This document shows positions 9,701 through 27,889 of a stretch of DNA of 27,889 bases, piece after piece (within the stretch, counting starts at the first letter, position 1; the number at the start of each line of letters is the position of its first letter). The DNA comes from a virus. The translations under genes were made by a program, and so were the position numbers. The DNA is taken from IMG/VR virus record IMGVR_UViG_3300002064_000002; one strand, given 5' to 3'. The notes beneath the pieces were generated by a model. That model was not told the origin of the DNA and made no database searches. It saw nothing but the letters and a program-made list of their open reading frames with translations.

Positions 9701-12289
9701 AGAATACTCAGGACTCAGATCTAGAATTTGTTCTACTAGACCCATGTTGAATATTAACTGTTTCTGTAACTTCTTTATCTCAGCTACTTTCTCTGTTTCT
9801 CCTTTAAAAAATTTACCATTTATTATCCCTTGTACTTTATATGCAGATGTTAGCTCTGATAATACTCTAAATATATCTTTTCCAGAAGTAAAGTCCACAT
9901 TAGGGTTCCCATTAAGCCTTTTCATCTCCTCTTCTACTCGAGCTCTCTGTTCTATTAAAGATTTTCTCTTCTCATAGAACTCTGTAGTAGCAGAAGTTTC
10001 TATATTATTCATAGACCACTGATCAAAAGTACCGTTTTTCTCATGGAACTTTTTTTCTCTTTCCCATCTCTTTAGAGATGATTCAGGTATTACCCATTGA
10101 TGCATCTTATAATTAGCTTCAGAATAGTCATGAAATACCTGTGCTATTTTCTTATATTTATCTTCCTTTCTATTAATAGACTCCAAGTGAGTCTCATAGA
10201 GTTCTTCTGCATTTGCAACTCCATTGGCTTTATCTTCCTCAAATCCTTTCCTGGCTGCTTCTCTCTCTGCATTATACTTCCTCTCCACTGCAGCAATACT
10301 TCCCAACTCAAATTTCTCCTGTCTTAATTTTCTAATATCAGATCTGGAAGTAGGTGTTTCATTACCTGACATTATCTGCTCCTGCATCTCTCTAATGCCG
10401 TCATCTATTTCCTTCATCATTCCGGCCAGATACTCTCCTTCTATGACTACTTCCAGTTTGTTCAGATTCTCATAGTACTCTTGCGTATAAGGTTTTCTTA
10501 CATTCTCAAATTCAAATTTATTATTAGCACTATTTGCCATAATAAATAATCTGTTCATAGCACCTCTGTACTCATCGGTCTTACTACCATCATTATCTGC
10601 CTTCTGTCTAAATGCTTTTATCTGTCTTAGAAAAGACTTATTAAATGTTCTTTGCTTATCAAACTCAGGACTTATCTCTCCCACTAGTCTTAATTGTCTA
10701 TTTCTCCTAAGTCCTACTTTTTCTGCCACAGTTTCTATATCTCCAGATTGTAGAGCTAGTACCAGTTCATTGATACCTTCTATAGTATCAGGAATTTCAG
10801 CCAAGTTATCTGTACCAAATGTTTCTACTATTTCTACAAATTCTTCATAGTCTTTTTCTGTATTGCTCTTATTACCCAAAGCTCCAGTTTCTATTGCTTT
10901 ATTCAATATCTTTTGTAATGCAGTGGCTGGTCTTTGGAATTCATTAGCAGAATCTCTTTCTGACCTAGCTACTAGATTACCAAATCCCTGCACTATAAGA
11001 TCCTTATTATCTCTAGAAGCCTGAATCATGGTTTTTATATAATGCACATCTCCTCTCTCCCCTTCCAATATAGATACTATAGTTTCCTTTGTAGGAGCAA
11101 GGTCTTCTACTTCCTTCTTTCTCCTAGCTAGTGCAGATTCATAGTTTTTGATAGCTCCCTCATTGTTTGCTTCTTTTGATTCTCCAAGTTTGCGCTCAAG
11201 GTAAGCTATGTCCTTATCCGCCTTTCTTTTCCATATTCTGTATCCTGGTTCATATAACTTAACTAACTCTTCAGTAGCTTCTTTTTTGGCTAGTTCTCTC
11301 TTGATATCATTAATCGATTTTATTCTAGCCTCTAGTTTTTCAAGAGTATTAGTTATAGGACTTTTTGAAGAATTTCTACCAGTTCCTAATTCTAGTTCTT
11401 TTCTGATTGCATCTATAGCTCCTAGATGTGGTGCTAATAATTCATACAAATCATGTACTTCAAGATACTTGTTGACAGCTTTCTCATCTATTTGTATCTG
11501 TCTTATCCCACTACCAACCCCATTAGCTAGTGTATTCACATAAGCCAAATAAGAACCCAGTGCTTCTGCTTTCTTTTTGAGATTCATACCGACTTTGTTC
11601 TCATTCATAAGAACTTGACTTAGTTGCTTATGCATCTTGAATCCCTTACCTACTACATCTACCTTATCCAAAGCTCTCTGATTTTCATCGGATACGGTCT
11701 GCTTATTCTTCTCAATATTTAATTGCTTATGTAGTGCATTATATGCAGTATTAATAGCTTCCAGTATAGGAGTTTCATTTTTCAAGAAGTCCTTCTGCAT
11801 TCTATCAGTAGTAAGTTTTATATATTTAGAAGTACCTATATTTTGAGTATCTATCTCTACATCTTTTTTATTATGGTGGGCATCCACAATTGCTTGTGAT
11901 TCTTTCTTAGTAAGATATCTCTTTACAAAGAACAATCTTTCAGTTTCTACACCAGGGCTACCATCTTCTTCTACACTTCTTGTTACTGCTATCTTGAATA
12001 CAGGAAAACCGAATGCAGTATTCATTTGATGAATAGTGTCATGTAGTTCTCTACGCATCTGATCAATATCAGCCTGCCCTACTTCATCTTCAGTCCCTTC
12101 TCTTTGTAAGATCCTGTCTGAAAGTACATCCAAGTCTACACTGGCATTAGTTTCATTGAAAGAACCAAAGTCTCTTGTAAAGTTCTCTCCATATGCTTTT
12201 TTTAGGATATCAGTAACAGTCACCACCTCCCTTGCAAGGATATTACTTCCTGATTGATCTTTTCCTAACTGTGATTTACAATCACTCAT
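6734..12289 (-). CDS. Giant putative virion ejection/cargo protein with C-terminal membrane-interacting region
   Basis: 1851 aa, charged and coiled-coil rich. Near the C-terminus are the hydrophobic segment IIIMTAVVSIAMLAVGF followed by DDEDE, and GNYGSLNQTLAQRHIVWRSLFWMKQF, a layout resembling crAss-like ejection proteins. Its only Cys is at position 4. Confidence 0.7.
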   Translation of the reverse strand: MSDCKSQLGKDQSGSNILAREVVTVTDILKKAYGENFTRDFGSFNETNASVDLDVLSDRILQREGTEDEVGQADIDQMRRELHDTIHQMNTAFGFPVFKIAVTRSVEEDGSPGVETERLFFVKRYLTKKESQAIVDAHHNKKDVEIDTQNIGTSKYIKLTTDRMQKDFLKNETPILEAINTAYNALHKQLNIEKNKQTVSDENQRALDKVDVVGKGFKMHKQLSQVLMNENKVGMNLKKKAEALGSYLAYVNTLANGVGSGIRQIQIDEKAVNKYLEVHDLYELLAPHLGAIDAIRKELELGTGRNSSKSPITNTLEKLEARIKSINDIKRELAKKEATEELVKLYEPGYRIWKRKADKDIAYLERKLGESKEANNEGAIKNYESALARRKKEVEDLAPTKETIVSILEGERGDVHYIKTMIQASRDNKDLIVQGFGNLVARSERDSANEFQRPATALQKILNKAIETGALGNKSNTEKDYEEFVEIVETFGTDNLAEIPDTIEGINELVLALQSGDIETVAEKVGLRRNRQLRLVGEISPEFDKQRTFNKSFLRQIKAFRQKADNDGSKTDEYRGAMNRLFIMANSANNKFEFENVRKPYTQEYYENLNKLEVVIEGEYLAGMMKEIDDGIREMQEQIMSGNETPTSRSDIRKLRQEKFELGSIAAVERKYNAEREAARKGFEEDKANGVANAEELYETHLESINRKEDKYKKIAQVFHDYSEANYKMHQWVIPESSLKRWEREKKFHEKNGTFDQWSMNNIETSATTEFYEKRKSLIEQRARVEEEMKRLNGNPNVDFTSGKDIFRVLSELTSAYKVQGIINGKFFKGETEKVAEIKKLQKQLIFNMGLVEQILDLSPEYSQRTEQIAKLVEEKNELEYQQQIITDKEDLKAIKTRQRELRKSMNKLGQDNANEMRDQRQALRDSNREMYDLLTSYEKLSEQMRDLSKRITTEYYQEALDDALEEFAEQQDIQLEEDFEANGNRYFLEGKTWKKIKLDEQEQLATYLGPRENILSIYRRSKNFQDKFKAESEWYKNNHISNFFIAKNEESGKSYISKTFEPIYIWKHSKPRNQEHIDKEAPTFAWKQRKVRDGIINPEGIKEGGFINDEFNEEGDIDIKGNYKAIKHKRWLNPKYQNIANNPDKEAFVEGYRKEYHNFQLKYPESKRLGDVLPSKRKEFTLENMGHEWQGAKDTFNRFSEQFIKTKQDLTEGEAVSVDSKGKEAQRIPVLMSGPIEPEDNSNIFSQTILEYGRHAYRYEHLTNIDSTANALIETTGNNSIKNKDKEDATDQAHRRKLAEETASKLKIKGVIDSKAVNRRHEALIQMREMHILNQKKITVEQLDKLSIGDKAINVDKAFGTLLGWRSTVVMATLPWSAHAFATQGANLANGMLQMALMTGTNNEYSLKETARAYKKATKDLKSVFNDWHNSEAYSDNLGSQMMWYFGALESTLSDVTGERVRNKNALRKFLSRDFLFWLKNSVELTLATTTYRMVGEKYMVTIDGNRQVPIIEAYENTQGYPMEIGNIKFPTATQEEYDEYVEAREILRTSENLQDLQDAEHYIKQYKSTHEFLFSAKVADLQRNVNGNYGSLNQTLAQRHIVWRSLFWMKQFLLPMLRFRYGSLHYKFEAGGLRQGYYRTMIDAVDPRHLKGQGIVKMAMHTINTFTRPMHHDFLNEREIKDIKKVHNDIIIMTAVVSIAMLAVGFDDEDETVMVYNEYTNEWEKKKATAYNKMKARDHTLVGKALNTVANMLNKISSEYQSVNVVTGINEFNRVRNNLTSEMIPMFDQVLKVASSVYGGRYEKNGPTYRKGELKFFNELQKQILGMGTSKVGDFNMIEAIKIREGMKR

Positions 12290-14694
12290 AACTTACAATT
12301 TTTATATTCTTCTATAGTATCACTCTTAAAATAATAGAAAGTTCCTTTACTCTTTGCCAACTCTGCTCTACTACCAGGATCATGGTCTGATATAGTATCA
12401 AGAGTTACATCTTTCTGGTTATTAATAAGAGGTACAAATTGATTTTCATACTTTGCCCCAATCATTAGATTACCATGTTCATAAGTAGTACTCTCTCCTA
12501 GATGCTCCATAGCATCCACATTTGTTTCTCCATTGAAACTTTCACGAGGTTGCTTGAATTCCTGCTTTACAATATGAGTTCTACTATTCAGAAATCCAGC
12601 AGATAAATTATAGCCATCAATTGTCATCAATTGCGCATTAGTAAGATCCTCATAGAAAAAATAATCTCCATGATCTATATCCTTAGTGGGTTGACTATTT
12701 CTTCTTGCTTTGAAATATAGTAGCTTTGGTTCCCCATTTTCATCTAGTAATAGACTGGACTTAGGGTTATGCATTATAGCAAACTCTCCAAGATTGAATA
12801 TCCCATTCTTACTTACTTTCTTATTTACATCTGTGTTCTTACTACCTTCCAAGTACTTAGGTATGTCATACCTAAGAAGATGTCTTGTCATCTGATATCT
12901 TGTCAGTAGGTTCCCACTATAAGTATATCCTGGTCGTAATAATTCTATATCAGCCCGCATCTCTGATAACTTTTCTTCATTAATGTTACCTCTGTCCTTC
13001 AAAATTTCTACCAGTTTATGATTAAGTTGAATAGTTTTTATAAATTTAGCTCTATCAGACATAAACTTAAGCTGCTCTATTTCTTCATTATAGCTACCTG
13101 GTGTAGTTGCTTTACCAATCTTCTTGGATACTAATTCTTTCAACTCTTCTGTAGTGATGGTACCATCTACATCCGGTCTAAGGTTCTCTACATAAAAATC
13201 AAGTAACTGATCTATATTAGAATGAGCAGTCATTCTGTTGTATACTCGCAGCATATCTGCTTTAAGCTTTCTTTTAAATTTATCAGGTCCAAATTCTACT
13301 ATTCTAAAAAACTCTTTAGCTAAATCCTGATTGTAGAGCCTATCTCTATTATAATAATCGATTGCATCATAAAAGTTAATGACTGATATATCATACATTG
13401 ATGCATCCGAATCAGGGTTGTTATTTTCTAATTTGATATACTCTAATGCAGTATATTTCTTTCTTGTTTTCTTAAATTCTTTACCTAGATTACTTCTTAG
13501 ATCCGATACTGTTATTGCTACCTGATCTCCGTGCTCTGTTCTTATATCTTCTATACTCATTTTGGTATTTTCAAGAAGACTTGATTTTAAAAGAACTATA
13601 TCATCAGTAGTATTACTGAGGTCATTTAGCTCTCTTATCTTGTCATTACCTATTTTTTCAGTGAAAGAAAGGATAGTTTTCAATCTTTTTATCTCTTTGG
13701 GTAGGTTATCCGATAGTCTCAGAAACTCATTATCCTTTTTGTCTGTACTTAATTCTGCTATAGTTTTTCCATTAAATCTAGGTACTAATTCTACTTCGAT
13801 GGGATCAAGATATTCTTCAGTAGGGAACTGTTCTATATCTATCTCTCTACTTTCCTGACTTACATTATCTAGATCAGACTCAAAGAATTCTTTTACATTT
13901 GATAGATTTCCCATAGTACGGAAGGTGGGATTAGTGTCTGATTTTTCATACACTACTACTCTGTTAGGTATAATCTCATCAAAGACTAAATCTTTATCTT
14001 CAAAAAGCTCATCTAATATATCATTCATATCTCTTTCAGGATCTTCTGCCACAATATCAAAGTATTCTGACTTTAGAGGCATGGATAATTGAAGAGGAGA
14101 AAATTTACTTCCCAGATAGCCTTCTGGTTTCTTTATATCATTATCTATGGGAATGGTTATTCTGTCTATACTCTCATTGCCTAAATCTACTCTCAGTACT
14201 ACTGCACCTGGTACTTCTGTTTTGGATAATATGGATACTATCTTCTTTCTATCTGCAGTATTTATGAAATTAGAATCTGTAATAGGGATTTCTATCTTAA
14301 AATTTTTATCAGAAATTCCCAGTATCTCTCCTATTCTACTATCTACCCTGGATACCAGACTCTTGGATTCTATACCAAGGTATTGTTCCAGGTTTGCTTT
14401 ATTACTGGATTGTTGCCAATCTCCAAACTGACTTTCAAACTTAGGAGTATAAGCATGAGCCCATAGACCTACAGCCATCTCCTGCAGATCAGTTTTCCAT
14501 TCATAAATATGACCTGCTCTCTCCAAGGAATCCAAGTGATCTTTCATATCCTGACTAAGAGAATTGACTACACTGGGCACATTGGCAATTGCTTCATTGA
14601 TCTTCTGAAAGAGCAGGCTAGGTTTACCAGTTACTGTTTTCACTTCCAATCCATTTTCTCTGCTTACTTGTCCATCAAATACTTCACAAATCAT
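12286..14694 (-). CDS. Large virion-associated protein with a split, probably inactive ART-PolyVal-like domain
   Basis: 802 aa with GKPSLLF and YTPKFESQFGDW near the N-terminus, and LLDENGEPKLLY...YFFYED...A...GFLN...NQF near the C-terminus. Cys occurs only at positions 3 and 800. It overlaps both neighbours. Confidence 0.6.
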   Translation of the reverse strand: MICEVFDGQVSRENGLEVKTVTGKPSLLFQKINEAIANVPSVVNSLSQDMKDHLDSLERAGHIYEWKTDLQEMAVGLWAHAYTPKFESQFGDWQQSSNKANLEQYLGIESKSLVSRVDSRIGEILGISDKNFKIEIPITDSNFINTADRKKIVSILSKTEVPGAVVLRVDLGNESIDRITIPIDNDIKKPEGYLGSKFSPLQLSMPLKSEYFDIVAEDPERDMNDILDELFEDKDLVFDEIIPNRVVVYEKSDTNPTFRTMGNLSNVKEFFESDLDNVSQESREIDIEQFPTEEYLDPIEVELVPRFNGKTIAELSTDKKDNEFLRLSDNLPKEIKRLKTILSFTEKIGNDKIRELNDLSNTTDDIVLLKSSLLENTKMSIEDIRTEHGDQVAITVSDLRSNLGKEFKKTRKKYTALEYIKLENNNPDSDASMYDISVINFYDAIDYYNRDRLYNQDLAKEFFRIVEFGPDKFKRKLKADMLRVYNRMTAHSNIDQLLDFYVENLRPDVDGTITTEELKELVSKKIGKATTPGSYNEEIEQLKFMSDRAKFIKTIQLNHKLVEILKDRGNINEEKLSEMRADIELLRPGYTYSGNLLTRYQMTRHLLRYDIPKYLEGSKNTDVNKKVSKNGIFNLGEFAIMHNPKSSLLLDENGEPKLLYFKARRNSQPTKDIDHGDYFFYEDLTNAQLMTIDGYNLSAGFLNSRTHIVKQEFKQPRESFNGETNVDAMEHLGESTTYEHGNLMIGAKYENQFVPLINNQKDVTLDTISDHDPGSRAELAKSKGTFYYFKSDTIEEYKNCKL

Positions 14695-17600
14695 TAGTTA
14701 CATTTTTTACTTAGATTATCTTTCTGGCTTTGACTCAGGTCTTTTACTTCTTTTATTTCAGAAGAGTCATATAAAAACATCACCTCTTCCCCTTTCTTAT
14801 ATTCCAGTAAACCTGAATCATCTTGAGCAATCTCAATGTTTTCTACCTTTAAGAAGTCGCGCATTCTTTCATCACTTTTAAGTTCACTTATAGGTACCAA
14901 GGCTATTCCTCCTTTTGATACTACTGCTATTATATCTCTAAGAGGTAATTTTGAATCAAAGTCAATATACACAAATTTATTTTTAACTGCTTCAGAATCC
15001 ACATCAGCTTCTCTAAGTGTATCAAGTATAAAGTCTTTCTTACTTATCTGCTCTACTGTTTTGCCTTTCACAGCATCAGTAGTATTCTTGACTTTTATTT
15101 CAAGATCTCTATATCTTCTTGTACCAGGAGTTAACCTTTTCTGACTTCTATCCGGGTCTGATGATGTATAAAACTCAGGATTATAAACTTCAAAGTCTTT
15201 TAGGAACTTCTGAAATAAGCCTTGGCTATTATCTAGATCTTCTAATATAGAAAGATCAAGTACTCCGTCAGTAAATTCTTTCATAAACTTTCTAGGAATA
15301 CTAGGTACGAAGCCAAAGTGATTCTTTCTAAACCCAGCTTGCCCAAATCCTATCAAAGCTATTTCTTTTGCCAGTCCTTTGAACCTGTCATCTATCTTCT
15401 CTATAGCTTCTATTTTTAATATAGATTGATGTATTGCATTCACCATACTAGTATCACTAATATCCTTATTCACCTGTAAATATACATCTGTCAGATCCTC
15501 CACCTCATTAGTATAGTGAGTTCTATAAAGCATATCAGATTGTAACTCAGGATACTCTGCAGTCATCAATAGATATTTGTCATAAGTGCTATTTGCTATG
15601 TCTGAGAGTTTCTGATTTATATTAACTCCATCTACTGTACCTGTCTTCTTTACCAAGTATTCTTTGAAGTCTGCTATAAGAAGAGTTCTCAACCTTTCTC
15701 TTTGAGATCTCTTTAATTTGGCAAATACCTTTTTGCCAGTAGAATATTTTCTAATAGCTTCTGTCAGATCAGCATCATAAGTGAAAGGAGCAAGGTTTTC
15801 ATGTATAGTCTGTACTGCATCATCCTGATGATAAGGACTAACCTCTGAATCTTCTAGTACTTTCTTTATATACTCTGCCTGTACCAAAAGATTCTTATCA
15901 CTAAGACTTATCTGTGATCTTCTATCTTGTATCTCCATAGGAGTTCTTGATGGACTAGTATCCACTTTCAAGAATGACTGGATGGATAACATCTGCCCTG
16001 CCTGTATATCCATTTCATTGAAATAAGCTAAGACAGCCAATTGTTCCACTACTTCTGGATCTGTTCTCTCAAAGAAAGACATTTCTACCTGGTCTTTACT
16101 AGGTCTTTTTTTCTTCTGTAATTCAGCTAACTTATCCGAATACCTTCCTTCCTGAAATGCTTTATTCGACCATTCTTCTAACTTGAATTTACCATCCTCG
16201 AAGAAATAATCTGCACCCAGTTCCTCGAATATTCTTCTACTATCCAATCCAGCTTTTACTAATTTATCTCCTCTCTTTTTCTTTATGATATATTCTTGAG
16301 GAATACCGTATCTTTCTGCCATTTTAACTACTGCAGTTTCCTTATTCACTCCAGAATCTACTAATTGCCCGGCTTGGAATATAATAGGTTGCTTCATGAA
16401 TCTCTTCATTCTACTAAATGGTATAGATAAGAAGTTAGAGAACATATATACGGACTTAGTGAACTCATTGAAGCCTGCTGCTCCGAGATCCGGCTTCTTC
16501 GCTCCATCTACCGACTTGTTAATATAGCCGGACTGTATAGCTACTTTAGTAAGGAAGGCTTTTAGTTCTCCTACTCCATCGATGATCTGCTGATTATCTA
16601 ATCTGAATCCATCCTTATCCGTATTAGATGCTTGTTCTGCATCAGTAAGAAGCTGAATATTTAATACTTCACTGGCTGTCTTTTTATTGGTTTTTCTATT
16701 CCATACTATATTACCAGACGCATCAGGGTATCCCATTCTAGCCCCTGCTCTCATAAAGAGTTCTATAAATGGAAGATTGGCTGCTGCTATATCCAAAAGA
16801 TTCTTTGTCTCTATAAGAAACTTTCTGGCCTGTAAGTTCACAGTAGGAGCATATATGTCCATTCCAGTAGGTAGATCCAATTCATCTCCGAAGTTATCAT
16901 CATTATTGGTTCTATAGTCTTTCTGGTCTGACTTAGTCTTTAACTCAGCAAGTTCATCAGTCATGTAATTATTATCAATAGGCTTGATCGTATTATAGAA
17001 GTTATACGGATGAAGAAGGCTGTTCTTAGTTGCATCCAGTAACTGGTTAGTGTACCGAGCTTTATCCGAGTTCAATTTTTTTGCTTTCTTTTTAGGATCC
17101 CCACTATATTCTTCTGTAATTCTATCACCTGTTTCAGGATCAAGACTCGGGTACCATAGATTGATCTTATCAAAATCAAAATCAGATCCCATCTGTCCTA
17201 CTACTTCTAGAGGAAGTATAGCTACTGGTCCTTGTGATGCTGAAAGGAATTTCTTTATCTTGAATACACCGGCAGAAGAAAGTAGCTGTGTAGGTATTCT
17301 ATATGCTACAGCAGTGATAAGATCAGCTGGTATAGCATTTTCTGCTATCAATTCATTCAATGCATCTACCTTACTGATCTTTTTCTCACTGGCTCTTTGC
17401 CTTACGTCTGCTCTTTTAAGAAGAGGTTTGAAATTATCTGACATAGGTACCATCATCTCTGATGGTTCTCCTATTGCAGGCATATACTTCAATTTATTAT
17501 CAAATCCTGCAGTAAAACCTGATGCAGATAATTGTACAGCAAGAGTACCATCTATGGTAAATCTGTAGATATTCTTATTAACTATACCAGTAATAAGGTT

Positions 17601-20600: not shown

Positions 20601-23600
20601 TGGAAAATCAGGATTATTTATTTCCTGATAGAGACTGTTCCATAGATCATTCATGGATTGATCCATGTCAGTTATCTTAAGTCTGTCTAAAATCTCCTCT
20701 ACAAATGGATCGTCTTTTTTCTCCATCAGTCTTTCCAATGCCTGTCTCTTACTGGTAGTGACTCCGAATATTCTTCTCACTTCCTGTGCTGCAAGAGAGT
20801 AAGGAGTACCAAAGTCCTCCATTCCCAAGTGATTATATACTTGCTGATACTCTCCATCTACATTTACTGTAGTAGGAAGTCTACTTAATAGTATCTTTAC
20901 TGGCTTAGAAAGGGCTTTTACCATACCTATATTACGATCATCACCAAATATCTCCGGCTTGGAGTATTCTTCTTCTGCTACTTCAAAATCTCCGTATTCA
21001 TCTATTACATCAGTATCCTCTATCTGTTCCTCATCTTCTGGAACAAGAAAATCATTGTCTCTGTTTTCAATCTTCTTAGATATCTTTACTTTTACCTTGA
21101 ACATGGTACTGGTCCTTGCCCAGTCTGTCAGAAACGCCTCTCTTGATTCTGTGGTATTGAAGATCTTTATCAGAGACTCTGTCATGTCTAAGTACTCCTG
21201 CTCTGCATCTTCTCCAAATTTCTCTATCTCTTCTCTTATATCTTTTCTCCTTCTATCTATATAAGTTGTTCTCATGAATTCATCAAAGTCCAGGAAGTAA
21301 GAATTATCAAGAGTAGTCTTAGTAAGTCCGTTTTCCTTCTTAGAGCTATCCTGATTCAGAATAAAACTGATAAAAAGATTATCCACTTCCTGTTTTAGAA
21401 GTATCTTATCTGTCTCATTATTAAGATCAATTCCTTTGGGTCCTGGTAAGAATACAGTAGATTTTCTCCTTCTTCTTTTTCTCTTAGCAGGTACTTTTTT
21501 CTCTGTAACATTGACATCAGGCGTATCAGTAATATCTGCTATGAATAAGTTATTGAGAGTAAGTAATGTATCATATACATTGACTCCTTCTACAGTATTA
21601 TCCGTCCTGAAGAAAGGATCTCCTGTCAGTGCTTCAAATATCTTATTAATAAAGTCCTTTATAGATCCTACAAATGTACCGGTCAATAATGAACCCTTTC
21701 TACCTTTCTCCTTAGCATGTAGTCTATTGAGGAACTCCAGTTGCTCGGCATTCAGTTCAAAAGAGATCTCTCTCTTCTTCAACTCTCTGACAAAGTCGCT
21801 ATTAGTGATACCTTTTGCCAGAAGTTCTACTCCCATATCATATTGGTACTCTTCTCCTGGTTTCATTTCAGATTCCAGTCCTACCAGAGTGGATTCAAGG
21901 TTCTTATCAGTTCTTAAGAATGAATCTTCTGCTTCCATATGTTCACTATGGAAAGCATTAGCTAGTTGTCCTACTATATCTTGAAAAGTATTTCTATCTT
22001 TTGTAGATAATTGACTTTCAAAAAAGTCAAGAACTGCATGCAGTCTCTCCTCCTGAAGCACCTCTTCATACAGCCTTTCTCCTTTTTCCTGCCCTAGTTC
22101 ACTGATTAGTTTTCCTTTGACCTTTGGTACTTTAAAAATAGTACCTGTCTTTATTGTCTTACCATCTCTAGTATAAGTGAATGGAGTATTAGGGTCATAA
22201 AAAGCTGGAGTATAGAATCCTTCTTCAAGACCTCGTCCACTGATAGCTTCTTCCACTATTGCTATTTCTTTCTTAGTCTTTGGGAACTTTATCATACCGG
22301 CTGGTATGAGTTTCTTAAGCGCAGAATCGATTCTCTTGAGAACTCGGTTCCTTCTCTCTGTCTTACTGTCATTTCTAGGAGCACTGATTTTGGTCTCTCC
22401 TATTACTTTGCCCCTTCTCTTTTTTTTCTTAACTATCTTTCTCTTAGGGTTAGGATCAAATCTTGCATATCTGTGCTGATCAGATGTAACTGTCTGCAAT
22501 GTCTCCAAGTTGAACTTTTCTACTTTTTCTACTTTATATTTTGGAAAGGATACTGCATTAACATAGTCTATTCCTCTAGGCTCATATCCTTCTGGATCCA
22601 ATCCTAGAGAATGAGCTACAAAGTCTCTTACTGTATTTCCTGTTTGATCCATAACATCATCAGGAACTTTATAAGAATCAGTAAATACTTTATTATAAAC
22701 CTTACTAAGTTCAGTACTTGATAAATCTTTATTTTCTAATTCCTTTGGAATATTCTTAGCAGCAGTAAGACCTTGTCCTTGAAAAAATATTTGAAGATCC
22801 TTCGGATTATCAATGTACATTTTCTTAGGAGAGGGGTTAGCTGGAGACACGTAGAACAGTCTTACATTATTAGCTCCTTCTGAAGTATCAAGGTATAACC
22901 TGCCAAATACAAACTTACCTTTCCTTTCTCCATTACCGTTTAATTCATTGGCTAAGTTCTCTGATCTGAAAGATGCACCGTAGATGAATTGCATGGCATA
23001 TGCTATATCTGTCTGTAGGAAGGTCCTTATTTTCTCTTCTTTAGTATCTGTTATAGAGTAAGTAGTTTGATGACTCCCATCCGGTTGGCTTAATTGAAAT
23101 ACTTTTTCATTCCAATATGTGAACTCGTCTTTACCATCTAATTCTAAGTCTACTTTTCTCTTCAGTTCCAGTTCATTACCAGACTGCATTCTGATACTGA
23201 TCTTTCCTCTATTTTCCAGATCATCCGGATCTCTGTTAATAGTTAAAGTGGATCCTTCAAAGAGAGTAGGTTCTTCTTGAACCATTTCTGATAAATCTGT
23301 ATTATCATTATTCCATATAGATATCTGACTAGAAACATTCTCTATGACAAGAGGGTAGTATTCTCCATTATCTATATTATCAATAAGAGTCTGCATCTTA
23401 CTGAACTTATCCTCATAGATAAATTCTACTGCTTTTTGCTCTGCACTGGATTTTGCATCAGTTTCAAATCCTTTACTATCTATAACTGCTTTAACATGAT
23501 CCTCATTGTTATTAAGATATGCTCTTACATAAGTATCTATCTTTTCCTGAGCATCCAGGCCCTCTTGTTTCCCTACTCTAGTTATGAAGCTGGATTCTGC

Positions 23601-24518
23601 TAATGTCTTACCCATCTTCTCCCTAGATAGAGGTATAATAGGTAATTCAGAAGCATCCTCTCCATCCACTACAGTTAATTCTCTAGGATTGGAATTGTCT
23701 AGTCTAAGAGCTTTAGATTCTAAAAAAGATAACTTATCCTGTATGTTTTCTAACTCTTTTGTTAGTGTATTTTCAGTATCCTTTACAACAAGAAGTACTG
23801 TGCCATCTCTTGCTATTCCCTGCTTATTTCTTCTTTCCTCAGAATCTATATCCTCGAAGTAAGCTTCATTATCCTTAACCATGACTATCTTGTAGTTAGA
23901 GATATTATCATCCGTATCAAGGTACTCTATGACGGCTCTTGCTTCTTTAGTATGTGTTACACTTTTATGAGGTCCTTCCCATGCTACTTGCTTATCCAGT
24001 GGTATCTGTCTACCATCTGTTCTCATATCTATATAATCAGATACTAGTTGATCTTCACCTACTGTAGTAGTCTCTATATCTATTCTTGGTGTACTACTAA
24101 CTCCTATAAATTTCTCTATAGGATAAGCTGCACTATCTCCCTCAAACTTAAATATAACTTTTCCTTTCTCCAGACTGAAAGTAACGTGCTTGAAATTCTG
24201 TTGTTTCTTACCTATAATGTTACCGTCCTCGTCTATATCATTTACAGTTCTTATTCCATCTATTTCAGATATATTTTTACTGATAGTTCTAGTCTGTCTT
24301 TTAAAATTCATAAAAGCTAGACCACCAGGTCCTCCAAGATCCTTGGTATTCTCAGAAACTTCATAAAGTCTATTTCTTATAAGATCTCTCAGATCCTCTA
24401 TGGTATCTACTTCAGCTTCTATCTGAGACTTAGCTTTCCCATCAGAATAAGTAGGTCTATTATTATCAAATAAGAAACTATTAAGTGCTTTATCTTTTAT
24501 TACTAGTTTACAACTCAT
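14694..24518 (-). CDS. Giant single-chain virion DNA-dependent RNA polymerase (two-barrel, crAss-like phi14:2 gp66 type) with N-terminal accessory domains
   Basis: 3274 aa. AYRIPTQ is followed by GSDFDFDK (DFDFD at 17169-17183, aa 2446-2450) and later SVDGAKKP. Upstream second-barrel-type motifs are DSNDAQSYMS, QLKLQY, FLKSS, AIKLG and QFSK. A zincin-like EERLH lies at 22038-22052. Confidence 0.9.
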   Translation of the reverse strand: MSCKLVIKDKALNSFLFDNNRPTYSDGKAKSQIEAEVDTIEDLRDLIRNRLYEVSENTKDLGGPGGLAFMNFKRQTRTISKNISEIDGIRTVNDIDEDGNIIGKKQQNFKHVTFSLEKGKVIFKFEGDSAAYPIEKFIGVSSTPRIDIETTTVGEDQLVSDYIDMRTDGRQIPLDKQVAWEGPHKSVTHTKEARAVIEYLDTDDNISNYKIVMVKDNEAYFEDIDSEERRNKQGIARDGTVLLVVKDTENTLTKELENIQDKLSFLESKALRLDNSNPRELTVVDGEDASELPIIPLSREKMGKTLAESSFITRVGKQEGLDAQEKIDTYVRAYLNNNEDHVKAVIDSKGFETDAKSSAEQKAVEFIYEDKFSKMQTLIDNIDNGEYYPLVIENVSSQISIWNNDNTDLSEMVQEEPTLFEGSTLTINRDPDDLENRGKISIRMQSGNELELKRKVDLELDGKDEFTYWNEKVFQLSQPDGSHQTTYSITDTKEEKIRTFLQTDIAYAMQFIYGASFRSENLANELNGNGERKGKFVFGRLYLDTSEGANNVRLFYVSPANPSPKKMYIDNPKDLQIFFQGQGLTAAKNIPKELENKDLSSTELSKVYNKVFTDSYKVPDDVMDQTGNTVRDFVAHSLGLDPEGYEPRGIDYVNAVSFPKYKVEKVEKFNLETLQTVTSDQHRYARFDPNPKRKIVKKKKRRGKVIGETKISAPRNDSKTERRNRVLKRIDSALKKLIPAGMIKFPKTKKEIAIVEEAISGRGLEEGFYTPAFYDPNTPFTYTRDGKTIKTGTIFKVPKVKGKLISELGQEKGERLYEEVLQEERLHAVLDFFESQLSTKDRNTFQDIVGQLANAFHSEHMEAEDSFLRTDKNLESTLVGLESEMKPGEEYQYDMGVELLAKGITNSDFVRELKKREISFELNAEQLEFLNRLHAKEKGRKGSLLTGTFVGSIKDFINKIFEALTGDPFFRTDNTVEGVNVYDTLLTLNNLFIADITDTPDVNVTEKKVPAKRKRRRRKSTVFLPGPKGIDLNNETDKILLKQEVDNLFISFILNQDSSKKENGLTKTTLDNSYFLDFDEFMRTTYIDRRRKDIREEIEKFGEDAEQEYLDMTESLIKIFNTTESREAFLTDWARTSTMFKVKVKISKKIENRDNDFLVPEDEEQIEDTDVIDEYGDFEVAEEEYSKPEIFGDDRNIGMVKALSKPVKILLSRLPTTVNVDGEYQQVYNHLGMEDFGTPYSLAAQEVRRIFGVTTSKRQALERLMEKKDDPFVEEILDRLKITDMDQSMNDLWNSLYQEINNPDFPVYMQVGFTDSLGDSNFIMSIGGANVKIKRSWTGNFRKHQGNFNLVFPWDDRFEDGGYDGYDEVSGITYDDLVMNLPNNKLVANPVNLKKVIDYALGNGNKEVASRTNTADILYNTFFKVLGFEVDPRTIEDIKKEKKAGNLKFSLISGNIADFINRTAAVKETATKGGLSNPVEQLRKNVANEEANGKVYSIKTLIDTLAREEAKYTRIVSNQYALGAGGKPTPANSKPNFANLVERSINDQAFFEGLMQGVEDNEMYNILSHLNSESFVNSPFYQRIKETILPTGKGSAETKELRKEYREAGKRAVEFINYNGDQNIRKDPKNNTEKTTNNLTDKQWLHLNILTMLRNGFVELPRAETAATAAALKFSDKRLWIPGTTEKSINEQLIKTEMRALASELLRVRQETREGKLLTDNYPKISLSDFKYLESFDLYEDSVDNKEVQDAIREVTLAATSSTTGLGMMFYDAMSDQLEIIEDAVLTYHDHWADLLIEKYEVLDIDAVREYKKGLDENDPHQSMPKELLLKKFSHNYIVHQRESMRLLYGGIHNYPNKGIHKRLKDIISSGKMGSTDRRDWDLYSNDFYDVTAREKQSKEDYNSFHINTMFIDNDVIKLDPDEVETKGKNKGKPTQRAEQAKTLLANGVESRFRAFINTYQIPIEDHAALRAIIEKDTREELFGKDGKGGPLSKMDSNDAQSYMSLDYMRNYLKEKGKWTDKDQKLYKYELAYYKKHYLPGGEKILLPPKPDHRFAQLKLQYRGNAVGENNHAVFLKSSYASLSPSAMHNTPLESLVKKAYEQNIHVFASQEAIKLGIAEGNDSKKSTIVNFFGGSDSNGVNQKFIDNDNFSDQTIQLYSPTLIEQIDTDNKQKTKNRIGSQFSKEIFSNVMHNGRYVDADDNKGILTDSTKKFEYNHNKYKGALRGLLNTQLDKLRLQIGVELGDTSFTMKQSGIGVLVNAIEDQLMKTNDGEIPAPIKDWIHETRDSISNVTTIENTGVDSTLINLITGIVNKNIYRFTIDGTLAVQLSASGFTAGFDNKLKYMPAIGEPSEMMVPMSDNFKPLLKRADVRQRASEKKISKVDALNELIAENAIPADLITAVAYRIPTQLLSSAGVFKIKKFLSASQGPVAILPLEVVGQMGSDFDFDKINLWYPSLDPETGDRITEEYSGDPKKKAKKLNSDKARYTNQLLDATKNSLLHPYNFYNTIKPIDNNYMTDELAELKTKSDQKDYRTNNDDNFGDELDLPTGMDIYAPTVNLQARKFLIETKNLLDIAAANLPFIELFMRAGARMGYPDASGNIVWNRKTNKKTASEVLNIQLLTDAEQASNTDKDGFRLDNQQIIDGVGELKAFLTKVAIQSGYINKSVDGAKKPDLGAAGFNEFTKSVYMFSNFLSIPFSRMKRFMKQPIIFQAGQLVDSGVNKETAVVKMAERYGIPQEYIIKKKRGDKLVKAGLDSRRIFEELGADYFFEDGKFKLEEWSNKAFQEGRYSDKLAELQKKKRPSKDQVEMSFFERTDPEVVEQLAVLAYFNEMDIQAGQMLSIQSFLKVDTSPSRTPMEIQDRRSQISLSDKNLLVQAEYIKKVLEDSEVSPYHQDDAVQTIHENLAPFTYDADLTEAIRKYSTGKKVFAKLKRSQRERLRTLLIADFKEYLVKKTGTVDGVNINQKLSDIANSTYDKYLLMTAEYPELQSDMLYRTHYTNEVEDLTDVYLQVNKDISDTSMVNAIHQSILKIEAIEKIDDRFKGLAKEIALIGFGQAGFRKNHFGFVPSIPRKFMKEFTDGVLDLSILEDLDNSQGLFQKFLKDFEVYNPEFYTSSDPDRSQKRLTPGTRRYRDLEIKVKNTTDAVKGKTVEQISKKDFILDTLREADVDSEAVKNKFVYIDFDSKLPLRDIIAVVSKGGIALVPISELKSDERMRDFLKVENIEIAQDDSGLLEYKKGEEVMFLYDSSEIKEVKDLSQSQKDNLSKKCN

Positions 24519-24906
24519 GGTTACATTTGCTTATAATATAATCTCCTTCATCGGTTTCTTCAAAGTTCCTTGTTATGAGGGTATTAGTACAAGTTACTAT
24601 ATTAAACAGGGGTCCCTCATACTTTATCTTAGATAGTTCTGGACATGGGATACTATACCCCACTCTATTGATCTTACCGTCCAATAAAGATATGGATTTT
24701 CCACATAAAAAGATTTTACCATCTCTATAGTAGTCTAGAACGCCATTATACTCTTTGATAATATTTACTTCCAATATCTTAGTAGACTTGAATTTATTCT
24801 TGTCATAGCCTATAATATCTTCTACATTCTCTACTTTGGTAATATACTCCCATCCCTTAGTAGTCAATATCTCTGTAGTGGCAGGCCACCATGTTCTCTT
24901 ATTCAT
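24508..24906 (-). CDS. Stand-alone degenerate Hint/intein-like domain protein
   Basis: 132 aa from the TAATG-coupled ATG at 24906 (135 aa from 24915). WWPATTEILTTKGW aligns with intein block A (CxxxxTEILTxxGW). EYNGVL matches the YxGxM strand, and IKYEGPLFNIVT..NTLITRN...IISKCN aligns with blocks F/G. The catalytic Cys1, block B TxxH and the +1 nucleophile are absent. Confidence 0.7.
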   Translation of the reverse strand: MNKRTWWPATTEILTTKGWEYITKVENVEDIIGYDKNKFKSTKILEVNIIKEYNGVLDYYRDGKIFLCGKSISLLDGKINRVGYSIPCPELSKIKYEGPLFNIVTCTNTLITRNFEETDEGDYIISKCNHEL

Positions 24907-27889
24907 TAGTCGCATTCTATTTCAAATAATACACCATAGTGTTTCAATACATCTCTATATTCATCAGGAGTCAGAGTTTTAATGAATTCTGATATTCCCT
25001 TGGATCTTTTACTATTGAGGATCTTGATATCCTTCTTGGTGAATTTTAGAGCATCAGTTACATCAGATGGACTGAACTGATCATCTTCTCCTAGATCAAG
25101 TTCTCCTGTTCCATCTTTATACAGTCCGGGTGGAAGTAATGCAATATCTATTTCTCTGAATTCTCTTATACTCGGTACACTGGCTCTTCTCCCTTCCTTT
25201 CCCTTATTAGCATAAAGAGCTCCGTTATTATTTACTTGTAGTCTTTCATTTGTAATAATATCCTCTCCAGTAGACTTATCTTTCTTTATTTCAAAAGTAA
25301 GATATGATCCTCTATGCGGACTCTTTCCATCTGACCCTAAACCTAGTTCTCTAAGTAGAAAGAATTTGTTCTTGCTATTTTTAGCTACCCATATTTTACC
25401 AGGAGCAGCCTTATTTCTGAACATGAGATTACCTCCTCTGCCTGAAGTACCTTTACTTGGAATAGCCTTTCCACTTATATTAAGATCTGGATAGTTATCA
25501 AATGGATTAGCTAGATCTTTTAGTTTTAATTCAGTAAACCTTGGTTTTTTCTTACCCTGTGCTCTGAATTCGCTTAAGGATATCTTGATCTTCTTTCCAC
25601 TGCCATCTACCAGATCCTGTCTTTTTCCTATTGTTCTAGAAAGTATAGCCAGAGTAACAAATCCTTCAGTAAGTGTCTGAGTACCGTCCTCATTATTGAT
25701 AAGCGTATCTGGACTTACACCAGTTACTTGATATATAGAAGTATGATCATCTCTATCACGAAGTAAGATATGAGGTTTTACTCTGTTATCTTCTTGAACA
25801 ATAGTCTCATCCCTGTTCATGCCTATTTGCCACTCATTTTCTATACTGTTGAGTTCATTTACAAGCTTGTTAACAGTTTTACTATATAGGTTCTTACTAC
25901 CTCTTTCCTCAAATAGTTCTTCAATACTATTAAACTCAAAATCCTTATCAGCACTTTCATCATCCGGCATCCTAGTTCTTGTGATGAGATCTTTATACTC
26001 TTCTTGTGGAATAGTTCTCCACATTACTACAAGTTCATTTTTACTAGTTACTTGATTAAATTTAGTGGTTAGAAACTGTACTCTATGAGCAAAGTTACCA
26101 CTATGAATTATAGTACCTTGTCCGAATACTTTACCTCCCACCTGTACAGTATCAAAATACTTATTTCTATGCTTACCTTTTTTCTTGTTCTTCTTATTAT
26201 TCTCTATGTACTTTATGATATCCTTTGGAGTATTGGTGGACCTTCCTCTATTACTCACTTTTCTTTCTATATTCCTCTGTATAGCTGTTACTGCATTTAT
26301 CTTTTTACTATGAAATTCTACTTCAGCATCTGTAGGAGTAGTGTACCCTTCTGCCACATATGACTTTATCATAGTACCGTCTACTTCTACATCTTCTCCA
26401 TATAATAAATAAGTCAAATCTTCAAGTTCACCACTATCCAATACCTTTTGTACATAGAATCCTCTTACCTTTCCATTCTCATCTCTTTCAGTAAAATTGT
26501 AGAATCTCCGGTAAATATCTCCATCTTTCATTATAAAGTTGGCCTTTATCACTCTGTACGGATCATCCTTTGGAGCAGATACCTGGCTCTTAGCCATCTC
26601 TGTCCAGTCATCATACGACTTATCTTCTCTTGCACTTTCTTCTTCCAGCTGTTTAAGAAGATCATCTTTAGACTTTTTGGTCGTACCGAATCTTGCTTTT
26701 CTTACGGATTCAATAGTCACCTTGGCACTAGGCTGACGTAAAGTCATTCCTTTTAACCTAAGAACTCTATTACCATTATCATCTACGTCCTTATCCTTGA
26801 AGTTAAAAGATGCCCTTCTGTTGGTAGCTGTATTGATTATAAGAGTAGACTTATCATTAGCCTGTGTCACTATATCTTTCTCTTTTGCTTTTCTGTCAGT
26901 GAAAGCTGTTTCTATCTGCCCTATTCTTATAAGGGAAGGGTCACTCTTTACTTGTCCCTTACCTCTCTTAGTTAAAAAATATACCTTACCTGCTCTATAA
27001 CCTACCTTTACTCCTGCACTTTCTGCAGCCCATTTGTAGAACAGGGTCTGATTATCAAGTTTTCTGATATCAGAGGTCTTGGAATTACCAAAGGCTTCTT
27101 TGGACATGAAGAAGGGATACTTGTCAATACTATGAACTATCATCTCCTTTGTCTTCAGATCCTGTATATTGATAAGTCCCACTTCAGGATTAGCTACAAC
27201 TCTAGTCTGTAACTCTCCTGTACTATTATCAGAGATTATCTTATACTTGTAACCAGTAGTCAATTCATCAGGTGTACCAGTAGCTACTATCTTAGTCTTA
27301 CCATTAGCATCCGGTCTTTCATAACTGAGCACTATTTCTCCTCCTTTAGAATTCTGGTTAAAAGGAATCTCTCCTCTATAGATATACTCTTCCAGATCTT
27401 TTTGTAGAAGTTCTAGTAATTGACCTTTTACTTTAGTCATTTGCTTTACTTTCACTTCTTTCCCATCAATAGTTTTTGTAACGAGGTTCTCATCACCATC
27501 TATGATATCAAATTCACCATTCTTGGTACTGATAGTGTGGTTGGTCAGACTGAATCCTCTGGTTACTTTTCTTATCAATTCATCCTTGGCCTTATCTCTT
27601 ACTTTTGCATCATTCTTATCATACAGTCTAGCAAGCATTTCAGGATCTGACATTAGCTTTCCTGCATTGTGCATGAAGTCTCTTCTAGCTTCATCCACTA
27701 ACTTACCCATCAATGTCTTAGTATAAACGTTCAATAATCCATAATCTCCTTTGGTTGGATCTTCATTCTTACTATTGAACTTACTCTTTACTTCTTTTAC
27801 TACTCTTTCAGCTTCTTTGGTATTATCTTTAACTTCTTCAGGTACAGGTTCATTAATACTTTCATATAACTCCTCTGCTTGTGATCTTT
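24906..27889 (-). CDS. Partial giant virion/ejection protein with a PD-(D/E)xK nuclease-like domain; start lies beyond the right edge
   Basis: The frame is open from 27887 (RSQAEELYESINEPVPEEV...), so the TTG at 27734 is not the true start and the protein is >=993 aa. Motifs: GKLVDEARRDF, E, GTPDEL, IQDLKT, QTLFY. The only visible Cys is in the terminal IECD. Confidence 0.8.
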   Translation of the reverse strand, partial: RSQAEELYESINEPVPEEVKDNTKEAERVVKEVKSKFNSKNEDPTKGDYGLLNVYTKTLMGKLVDEARRDFMHNAGKLMSDPEMLARLYDKNDAKVRDKAKDELIRKVTRGFSLTNHTISTKNGEFDIIDGDENLVTKTIDGKEVKVKQMTKVKGQLLELLQKDLEEYIYRGEIPFNQNSKGGEIVLSYERPDANGKTKIVATGTPDELTTGYKYKIISDNSTGELQTRVVANPEVGLINIQDLKTKEMIVHSIDKYPFFMSKEAFGNSKTSDIRKLDNQTLFYKWAAESAGVKVGYRAGKVYFLTKRGKGQVKSDPSLIRIGQIETAFTDRKAKEKDIVTQANDKSTLIINTATNRRASFNFKDKDVDDNGNRVLRLKGMTLRQPSAKVTIESVRKARFGTTKKSKDDLLKQLEEESAREDKSYDDWTEMAKSQVSAPKDDPYRVIKANFIMKDGDIYRRFYNFTERDENGKVRGFYVQKVLDSGELEDLTYLLYGEDVEVDGTMIKSYVAEGYTTPTDAEVEFHSKKINAVTAIQRNIERKVSNRGRSTNTPKDIIKYIENNKKNKKKGKHRNKYFDTVQVGGKVFGQGTIIHSGNFAHRVQFLTTKFNQVTSKNELVVMWRTIPQEEYKDLITRTRMPDDESADKDFEFNSIEELFEERGSKNLYSKTVNKLVNELNSIENEWQIGMNRDETIVQEDNRVKPHILLRDRDDHTSIYQVTGVSPDTLINNEDGTQTLTEGFVTLAILSRTIGKRQDLVDGSGKKIKISLSEFRAQGKKKPRFTELKLKDLANPFDNYPDLNISGKAIPSKGTSGRGGNLMFRNKAAPGKIWVAKNSKNKFFLLRELGLGSDGKSPHRGSYLTFEIKKDKSTGEDIITNERLQVNNNGALYANKGKEGRRASVPSIREFREIDIALLPPGLYKDGTGELDLGEDDQFSPSDVTDALKFTKKDIKILNSKRSKGISEFIKTLTPDEYRDVLKHYGVLFEIECD

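Follow-up and report, generated by a model that had tools for sequence, protein, structure and literature searches.

In the virion of the cyanopodophage A4 (Anabaena phage A-4L), Cys1715 of gp27 is disulfide-bonded to Cys5 of gp26, as observed by cryo-electron microscopy (cryo-EM; PMC12002296). Each is the sole cysteine of its protein, Cys1715 is third from the end of gp27 (1,717 amino acids, aa), and the two genes are consecutive. The authors of that work suggest a 'chain reaction' of ejection (PMC12002296). Here, we describe a comparable arrangement in 27,889 nucleotides (nt) of viral DNA, IMG/VR virus record IMGVR_UViG_3300002064_000002 (the whole stretch is hereafter termed the window), where four giant minus-strand genes encode proteins denoted A, B, M, and C, one of them (B) a crAss-type virion RNA polymerase, whose only cysteines lie at ends that face one another. 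The feature is real and order-wide, and the window provides a four-protein example with three links and a complete cysteine inventory.

Cargo proteins of this kind are known from cultured crassviruses, which are the most abundant gut phages. In crAss001, gp47, gp49, and gp50 were found in the virion by mass spectrometry (PMC10172136), and the homologs from phi14:2 are likewise virion-packed (bioRxiv 2020.03.07.982082). The latter preprint, which concerns the phi14:2 polymerase gp66, also reports that the three cargo proteins are fused in some phages (bioRxiv 2020.03.07.982082). In N4-like phages (Schitoviridae), the ejected polymerase exhibits near-total suppression of cysteine, attributed to its passage through the periplasm (PMC11445570), and ejection has been described as beads on a string (PMC11445570, PMC13434306). 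How several megadaltons of crassvirus cargo are ordered and moved through a channel <50 Å wide is stated to be an open question in two papers (PMC10172136, PMC13434306).

Cysteines at the Facing Ends of the Giant Proteins

The four giant open reading frames (ORFs) extend over positions 27889>-24906 (A, truncated at the window end), 24518-14694 (B), 14694-12286 (M), and 12289-6734 (C), all on the minus strand. Together they contain six cysteine codons, whose positions were derived from the ORF ends: the C-terminal cysteine of A (ending IECD; 24912..24914), Cys3 of B (MSC; 24510..24512), the C-terminal cysteine of B (ending KKCN; 14700..14702), Cys3 of M (MIC; 14686..14688), the C-terminal cysteine of M (ending KNCKL; 12295..12297), and Cys4 of C (MSDC; 12278..12280). 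No further cysteine was found in the 6,920 residues of the four window ORFs, and all six lie no more than 4 residues from a protein end, as an earlier, sequence-only reading of this DNA had reported. The probability that chance alone would place all six cysteines within 4 residues of one of the 7 visible ends is ~4e-15, and the depletion of cysteine has a probability of ~1e-18 for six or fewer, assuming a content of 0.85%. Neighboring ORFs are rich in cysteine (15 in 899 aa, 18 in 242 aa, and 10 in 182 aa), as had also been observed; the description of these neighbors as tail genes is less secure, since it comes down to a single weak PHROG tail-fibre match (E 3.5e-4).

The free ends of the chain are devoid of cysteine. 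The last giant protein ends in GMKR, in agreement with the sequence-only reading, and the first is represented by a full-length form identified in a protein search (P0156; 2,159 aa, 99.8% identity over 993 aa), the sole cysteine of which is residue 2158 and the N-terminus of which has none; this answers what that reading had asked of the first gene in the operon. With P0156 included, the chain contains 6 cysteines in 8,086 aa. The C-terminal cysteine of B recurs in a database protein of 99% identity (P0006). Each C-terminal cysteine is matched by one at the N-terminus of the next giant protein, as had been claimed; direct adjacency does not hold for the first two genes, because a 135-aa ORF lies between A and B.

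The identity of the proteins was established by homology. Cargo protein A is crAss001 gp47-like, with the 3′ part of its gene at 24906..27889 and a single cysteine second from the C-terminus (the donor end); residues 12-770 of P0156 align both to A proteins encoded by separate genes and to the N-terminal arm of A+B fusions (best E 2e-15). Protein B (14694..24518; 3,274 aa; only Cys3 at the acceptor end and Cys3273 at the donor end) carries GSDFDFDK at residue 2446, with the DFDFD catalytic motif encoded at 17169..17183. This protein of >2,000 aa therefore has the DFDxD motif within the conserved YRIP...GxDFD context, and it can be aligned with phi14:2 gp66 and crAss polymerases. A tblastn comparison with crassvirus polymerases matched 79 phage records, led by crAss-like phages (best E 2e-11). 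A phmmer search of B against PDB returned no match, indicating that the kinship to known polymerases is remote. Protein C (6734..12289; 1,851 aa; Cys4 only, the chain end) is crAss001 gp49-like, as evidenced by blastp matches to 14 C proteins and by a match (E 9e-58) to a profile made from the C-termini of C proteins with the window excluded. The polymerase is thus flanked by homologs of A and C, as in the Crassvirales cargo block. Assignment to the Crassvirales refers to this cargo block only, given that terminase, portal, major capsid, and primase genes lie outside the window.

Protein M (12286..14694; 802 aa; only Cys3 and Cys800) is an extra link. Its N-terminus is a module that also starts many C proteins and phi14:2 gp66; residues 42-124 are matched by the module profile (E 2e-10), and a search with the acceptor-module alignment A2 retrieved the N-terminus of PDB 6VR4 (E 6e-8). 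Beyond this module, M could be assigned to no known protein. A split ART-PolyVal-like signature was seen in M by eye, and neither Pfam nor a custom profile confirmed it. The FGDW and DENGEP motifs of M are ~550 residues apart and are adjacent in relatives, which implies a large insertion.

Pfam, PHROGs, and NCBIfam provided no named family for any chain protein. No close relatives were found for the core of B among viral contigs or for B in a set of 5.8 billion, and the best core identity to the surveyed relatives was 27-28%. Searches for longer forms of M (weak evidence) and for DNA past the window end found none. By analogy with the virion proteins of crAss001 and phi14:2, we infer that A, B, M, and C are packed in the virion.

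Terminal Cysteines and Gene Fusion among Relatives

To survey relatives, we compiled 93 loci comprising the window, 12 named phages, and 80 IMG/VR loci, which formed 75 clusters at 70% core identity. The IMG/VR loci were the best 80 of 507 confirmed, from a scan that covered 19 of the 64 parts of the collection. The roles of A, B, and C were set by size, position, and homology, and not by cysteine. Wherever a separate giant gene was downstream of the polymerase, the polymerase had a cysteine in its last 12 residues (79/79) and the downstream protein had one in its first 8 (79/79). At the junction of A and B (A|B), 32 of 35 A C-termini and 32 of 35 N-termini of B following a separate A carried a cysteine. 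The misses were L061 (survey loci are denoted by L numbers), with a cysteine at -19; L011, where the start was mis-called and the real start reads MSC; and L078 (6900-7330) and L085 (8180-8330), which are A+B fusions with a frame change reflecting either an assembly error or a programmed frameshift. The free ends never had a cysteine (A N-terminus 0/17, C C-terminus 0/66, and gp46-like C-terminus 0/5). The terminal enrichment and reciprocity that the sequence-only reading anticipated across the order are therefore borne out.

Among control genes of at least 250 aa, a terminal cysteine was present at 2 of 77 N-termini and 12 of 81 C-termini. Internal cysteines in cargo proteins numbered 130 in 399,159 residues (0.033%) versus 448 in 51,557 (0.87%) in other genes. 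In a further, independent collection of 148 polymerases from databases, a C-terminal cysteine was present in 124 of 131, and an N-terminal cysteine in 76 of 90 B-sized proteins and 0 of 17 fusion-sized proteins. The acceptor cysteine is at positions 3-6 across loci and never at residue 1 or 2, and the donor cysteine is followed by 0-18 residues to the protein end.

The rule also extends to a locus in which the polymerase is not a partner. In the Leptolyngbya phage Lbo-JY46 (L094; 2913-15819), an A protein (only cysteine at -1) directly precedes a protein of the C type, whose only cysteine is Cys4, and the D[FYL]DxD motif is absent from both. The cysteine link is thus independent of the polymerase. 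Lbo-JY46 is recorded on a cyanobacterial host and is a possible test system. As a further side observation, thioredoxin-annotated genes are located a few kilobases from the polymerase in three Intestiviridae (L001 30948-31217, L002 30351-30629, and L004 30142-30417), where they may serve other ends.

The pair is lost where cargo genes are fused. A is fused to B in 34 of the 67 scored clusters (L078 and L085 were excluded from cluster scoring, tree contrasts, and fusion-junction counts). Of 33 A+B fusions, the junction zone lacked cysteine in 26, and two cysteines within 60 aa were found in none. The polymerases without a C-terminal cysteine number 8 and are identical to the 8 that contain the C domain. 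All three cargo proteins are fused in L045 and L048, and the A+B+C fusion of L048 (5,005 aa) has zero cysteines. The quick tree shows 9 changes of A|B state, 6 of them forced by strong branches. The polymerase starts with a cysteine in 33 of 33 split cases and 0 of 23 fused cases, and the independent pairs agreed in 6 of 6 (p 0.031). Part of this contrast arises by construction, because the N-terminus of a fusion is that of A; its informative part is that internal cysteines are lost and pairs are regained. The presence of cysteines on both sides of each split, and their disappearance at fusions, is most simply explained if the pair stands in for a peptide bond.

Newly split genes are consistent with this interpretation. 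C is newly split in L031 and L089, each time with a new cysteine pair. In L040 (654-17979), which is nested among fused relatives, both sides of a new A|B junction are near-copies of the locus' own B|C junction, which suggests that a junction cassette was duplicated. Small genes with cysteines at both ends are located between B and C in L015, L023/L024, L031, L039, L068, L070, and L089; the equivalent insert in L060 was scored with a C-terminal cysteine only. Inserted GIY-YIG, ferritin, or unassigned genes do not show the two-ended pattern. In L023/L024 (L023 13810-14796), the gene between B and C encodes a 328-aa ART-PolyVal ADP-ribosyltransferase with cysteines at both ends, making this protein a candidate payload in the chain. 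Ferritin-like genes between B and C were observed in two distant phages (L034 13109-13600 and L064 13294-13782).

A Proposed Disulfide-Joined Chain and Its Alternatives

The occurrence of one cysteine per side, and of no conserved second cysteine or histidine close to either junction cysteine, suggests a disulfide, and we consider it likely that each facing pair forms an inter-chain disulfide. We also favor, with some reserve, a fuller model in which the separate proteins would act as one head-to-tail split polyprotein, A-B-M-C, of ~8,086 residues that is threaded in order from N to C. A loosely conserved C-terminal segment would dock onto the small N-terminal module of the next protein, the bond would form in the assembled particle, and the chain would set a 1:1 stoichiometry. 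Partly unfolded proteins would be fed N-to-C, in order, through the narrow tail, as proposed for the single-chain N4 polymerase, and internal cysteines would have been purged since they would mis-pair. Threading, the timing of oxidation, and the specificity of pairing are the parts of this model that we infer.

The pieces may be freed when the bonds are reduced in the host cytoplasm. Such reduction cannot be a requirement for polymerase function, because the polymerase stays fused to A in half of the scored clusters (34 of 67). The sequence-only reading had further suggested that reductive release activates the polymerase. This was rejected, given that A+B and A+B+C fusions exist and that recombinant phi14:2 gp66, crystallized with dithiothreitol/tris(2-carboxyethyl)phosphine, nonetheless adopted a self-inhibited form (bioRxiv 2020.03.07.982082), so that reductant alone is no polymerase switch.

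For the stand-alone ORF between A and B (24508..24915, minus strand; 135 aa, probable start 24906), the predicted structure is a Hint fold. The Atlas model has template modelling (TM) scores of 0.71-0.77 to Hint-type models, and feature matches to Hint/intein clusters were 0.89-0.91. Pfam returned nothing above the cut-off for this ORF, and no relatives were retrieved from viral or metagenome contigs. It begins MNKRTWWPATTEILT, has four cysteines (71, 91, 109, and 131), has neither cysteine nor serine at its start, and is a separate ORF fused to neither A nor B. Thus, of the features needed for intein self-splicing, it has the predicted Hint fold, lacks in-frame exteins, and, judged by eye, lacks the N-terminal nucleophile, a tryptophan being located at the presumed nucleophile position. 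We conclude that the predicted Hint-fold protein is probably a bystander and no chain link. Its C-terminus (ISKCNHEL) echoes the donor end of B (KKCN), and the Atlas holds several clusters of similar unnamed proteins of 128-164 aa.

The position of a Hint-fold gene exactly at the A|B junction of the window raises another option, namely that the 135-aa protein acts in trans and that thioester or Hint chemistry joins the ends through genuine peptide bonds. This is highly improbable and was rejected as a general mechanism: inspection by eye revealed no Hint-like protein among the listed gap ORFs of the 80 IMG/VR loci (those scanned were GIY-YIG, ferritin, ART-PolyVal, or unassigned), the presumed nucleophile site is the tryptophan noted above, and the acceptor cysteines lie at positions 3-6, with 0-18 residues following the donor cysteines. 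The head-to-tail joining in gene order put forward by the sequence-only reading is retained as a reciprocal pattern and its thioester variant is not, because the acceptor cysteine is never residue 1 or 2. There is next to no chance that the pattern is a by-product of DNA signals at overlapping stop and start codons, or coincidence. Two window junctions do overlap and TGT is the commoner codon, but TGC occurs as well (77 TGT/17 TGC at donor ends and 82/11 at acceptor ends), the gap between genes at a junction can be anything from -20 to 4,126 nt, and the cysteine positions vary. Moreover, the rule is kept across intervening genes and with genes on opposite strands, as in crAss001, tikkala, and DAC15, where A is on the opposite strand. 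The opposite-strand cases already refute a DNA-level artefact, and this candidate, together with chance, was rejected. Pairing in another order, with one bond inside B and one between A and C, or promiscuous pairing, would be compatible with the homology of the junction modules of B and C, with the direct meeting of A and a C-type protein in Lbo-JY46, and with the two near-identical junctions of L040. Nevertheless, A+B fusions keep just the C-terminal cysteine of B and the N-terminal cysteine of C, and B+C fusions keep just the C-terminal cysteine of A and the N-terminal cysteine of B. Because fusions retain only the cysteines of the remaining junction, the A-B and B-C pairings each appear to be selected; in most genomes, furthermore, junctions within one locus are no more alike than those between loci (mean score 27 vs 24). 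We therefore regard other pairing orders as very improbable.

Two remaining alternatives concern the nature and use of the contact. The two cysteines could share a metal ion (e.g., zinc) with acidic or histidine residues, forming a non-covalent clasp. Donor ends are acidic 5-8 residues ahead of the cysteine, and a clasp of this type could form during assembly in the reducing cytoplasm. Yet each end supplies a single cysteine with no conserved second cysteine or histidine near it, and the sole solved case of the same geometry, that of A4, is a disulfide, which makes the metal clasp improbable. Alternatively, the disulfides may be real without any pulling through the tail, serving either to lock the pre-ejection core in assembly or, once the proteins have been ejected, to tether the polymerase to the membrane-spanning part. 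Against this alternative, reduction would be expected for a bond that faces the host cytoplasm. A general cross-link, moreover, could be placed anywhere on an interface, so that strict C-to-N polarity and interchangeability with peptide bonds are better matched by a linear thread. In its favor, the A4 bond is said to stabilize a helix that inserts into a cleft within the packed core (PMC12002296), the N4 virion RNA polymerase has been proposed to stay membrane-anchored via a linker (PMC13434306), and timing cannot be read from sequence alone. Overall, we consider a lock or tether without threading unlikely.

Several points weigh against the disulfide-joined chain. Crassviruses have so far yielded no observation of a bond, contact, or mass shift; gp47, gp49, and gp50 are unresolved in the crAss001 cryo-EM map, and disulfide passages in that paper concern the tail (PMC10172136). 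The bond would need an oxidant, which is a difficulty above all in anaerobic gut hosts. Junction sequences are alike in little but the cysteine and so do not themselves account for the order, and the near-identical junctions of L040 would permit cross-pairing or cyclization. L064 (13785-20186) is off the rule, with two N-terminal cysteines per one visible donor and a C-like region that is split without a cysteine pair. Among the database polymerases, the expected cysteine was lacking in 7 of 131 at the C-terminus and 14 of 90 at the N-terminus, although many of these are fragment- or fusion-like. The size thresholds for fused and split genes were picked after inspection of the data. The tree was built by a quick method, contains several long branches, and provides only 2 independent contrasts for B|C. 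Finally, gp27 and gp26 of A4 had no blastp match to the crAss set at E 0.01, and none was listed for the three profiles.

Significance and Comparison with Known Systems

If a cysteine pair can replace a peptide bond, the free fusing and splitting of cargo genes is accounted for. The rule predicts exactly which residue pairs with which in cultured phages, allows sequence alone to separate chain members from bystander genes, and points to a natural route for attaching extra proteins to the injected chain. Tentatively, then, a portable cysteine coupling in crassviruses and related podophages may build a redox-cleavable protein train, in which any gene with an N-terminal acceptor module and a C-terminal donor cysteine might join the injected chain unfused. 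Payload cars such as the ADP-ribosyltransferase of L023 (ART-PolyVal) or the 802-aa M might be added or swapped in this way and pulled in with the polymerase.

A parallel in principle is provided by modular polyketide synthases and nonribosomal peptide synthetases, where short C- and N-terminal docking modules replace the peptide bond at places where a polyprotein is split. To our knowledge, those docking domains are non-covalent, have no sequence kinship to the junctions described here, and have no invariant cysteine.

The most closely comparable gene blocks are those of the Crassvirales themselves. Homologs of A, B, and C are present in the same order in crAss001 (gp47/gp50/gp49) and phi14:2 (gp66 and two neighbors), with cysteine positions for A / B / C of -3 / 5,-9 / 5 in crAss001 and -1 / 3,-2 / 3 in phi14:2. 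The window phage is very divergent from both and differs in having the fourth protein M and the Hint-fold gene. The word 'cysteine' occurs 0 times in the main texts of PMC10172136 and bioRxiv 2020.03.07.982082. Searches by term in both, as well as in Yutin 2021 (PMC7886860), a Crassvirales review (PMC10136315), and the N4 paper (PMC11445570), did not turn up the terminal cysteines of these proteins. A crassvirus cysteine rule was likewise not found in the literature searched, from which subscription papers were mostly absent. The sequence-only reading, which knew of no description of such a mechanism, is thus upheld, within the literature searched, for the multi-link crassvirus rule and corrected in that a single disulfide link of this kind had already been published for A4.

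N4-like phages resemble the window in having a giant ejected polymerase purged of cysteine. They differ in that theirs is a single chain with no cysteine at all and a T7-type polymerase, whereas the proteins of the window keep terminal cysteines and include a DFDxD-type polymerase. The N4 case accordingly accounts for the lack of internal cysteines and not for the terminal ones.

The likeness to A4 is closer, since both systems have consecutive giant ejection proteins with single cysteines at facing C- and N-termini. Given the lack of blastp similarity to crAss proteins, this precedent is an analogy: judged by its sequences, the window system appears to work like A4, and it is not counted as a member of an A4 family. 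The passages of the A4 paper on these proteins concern one link between two proteins in one phage, with no polymerase and no rule across relatives (PMC12002296). A single link of the A4 type is known; a fusion-equivalent chain of several links, with a virion polymerase among its members, was not encountered in the literature searched. Relative to A4, the window has three links and four proteins, together with an equivalence of fusion and fission that is order-wide.

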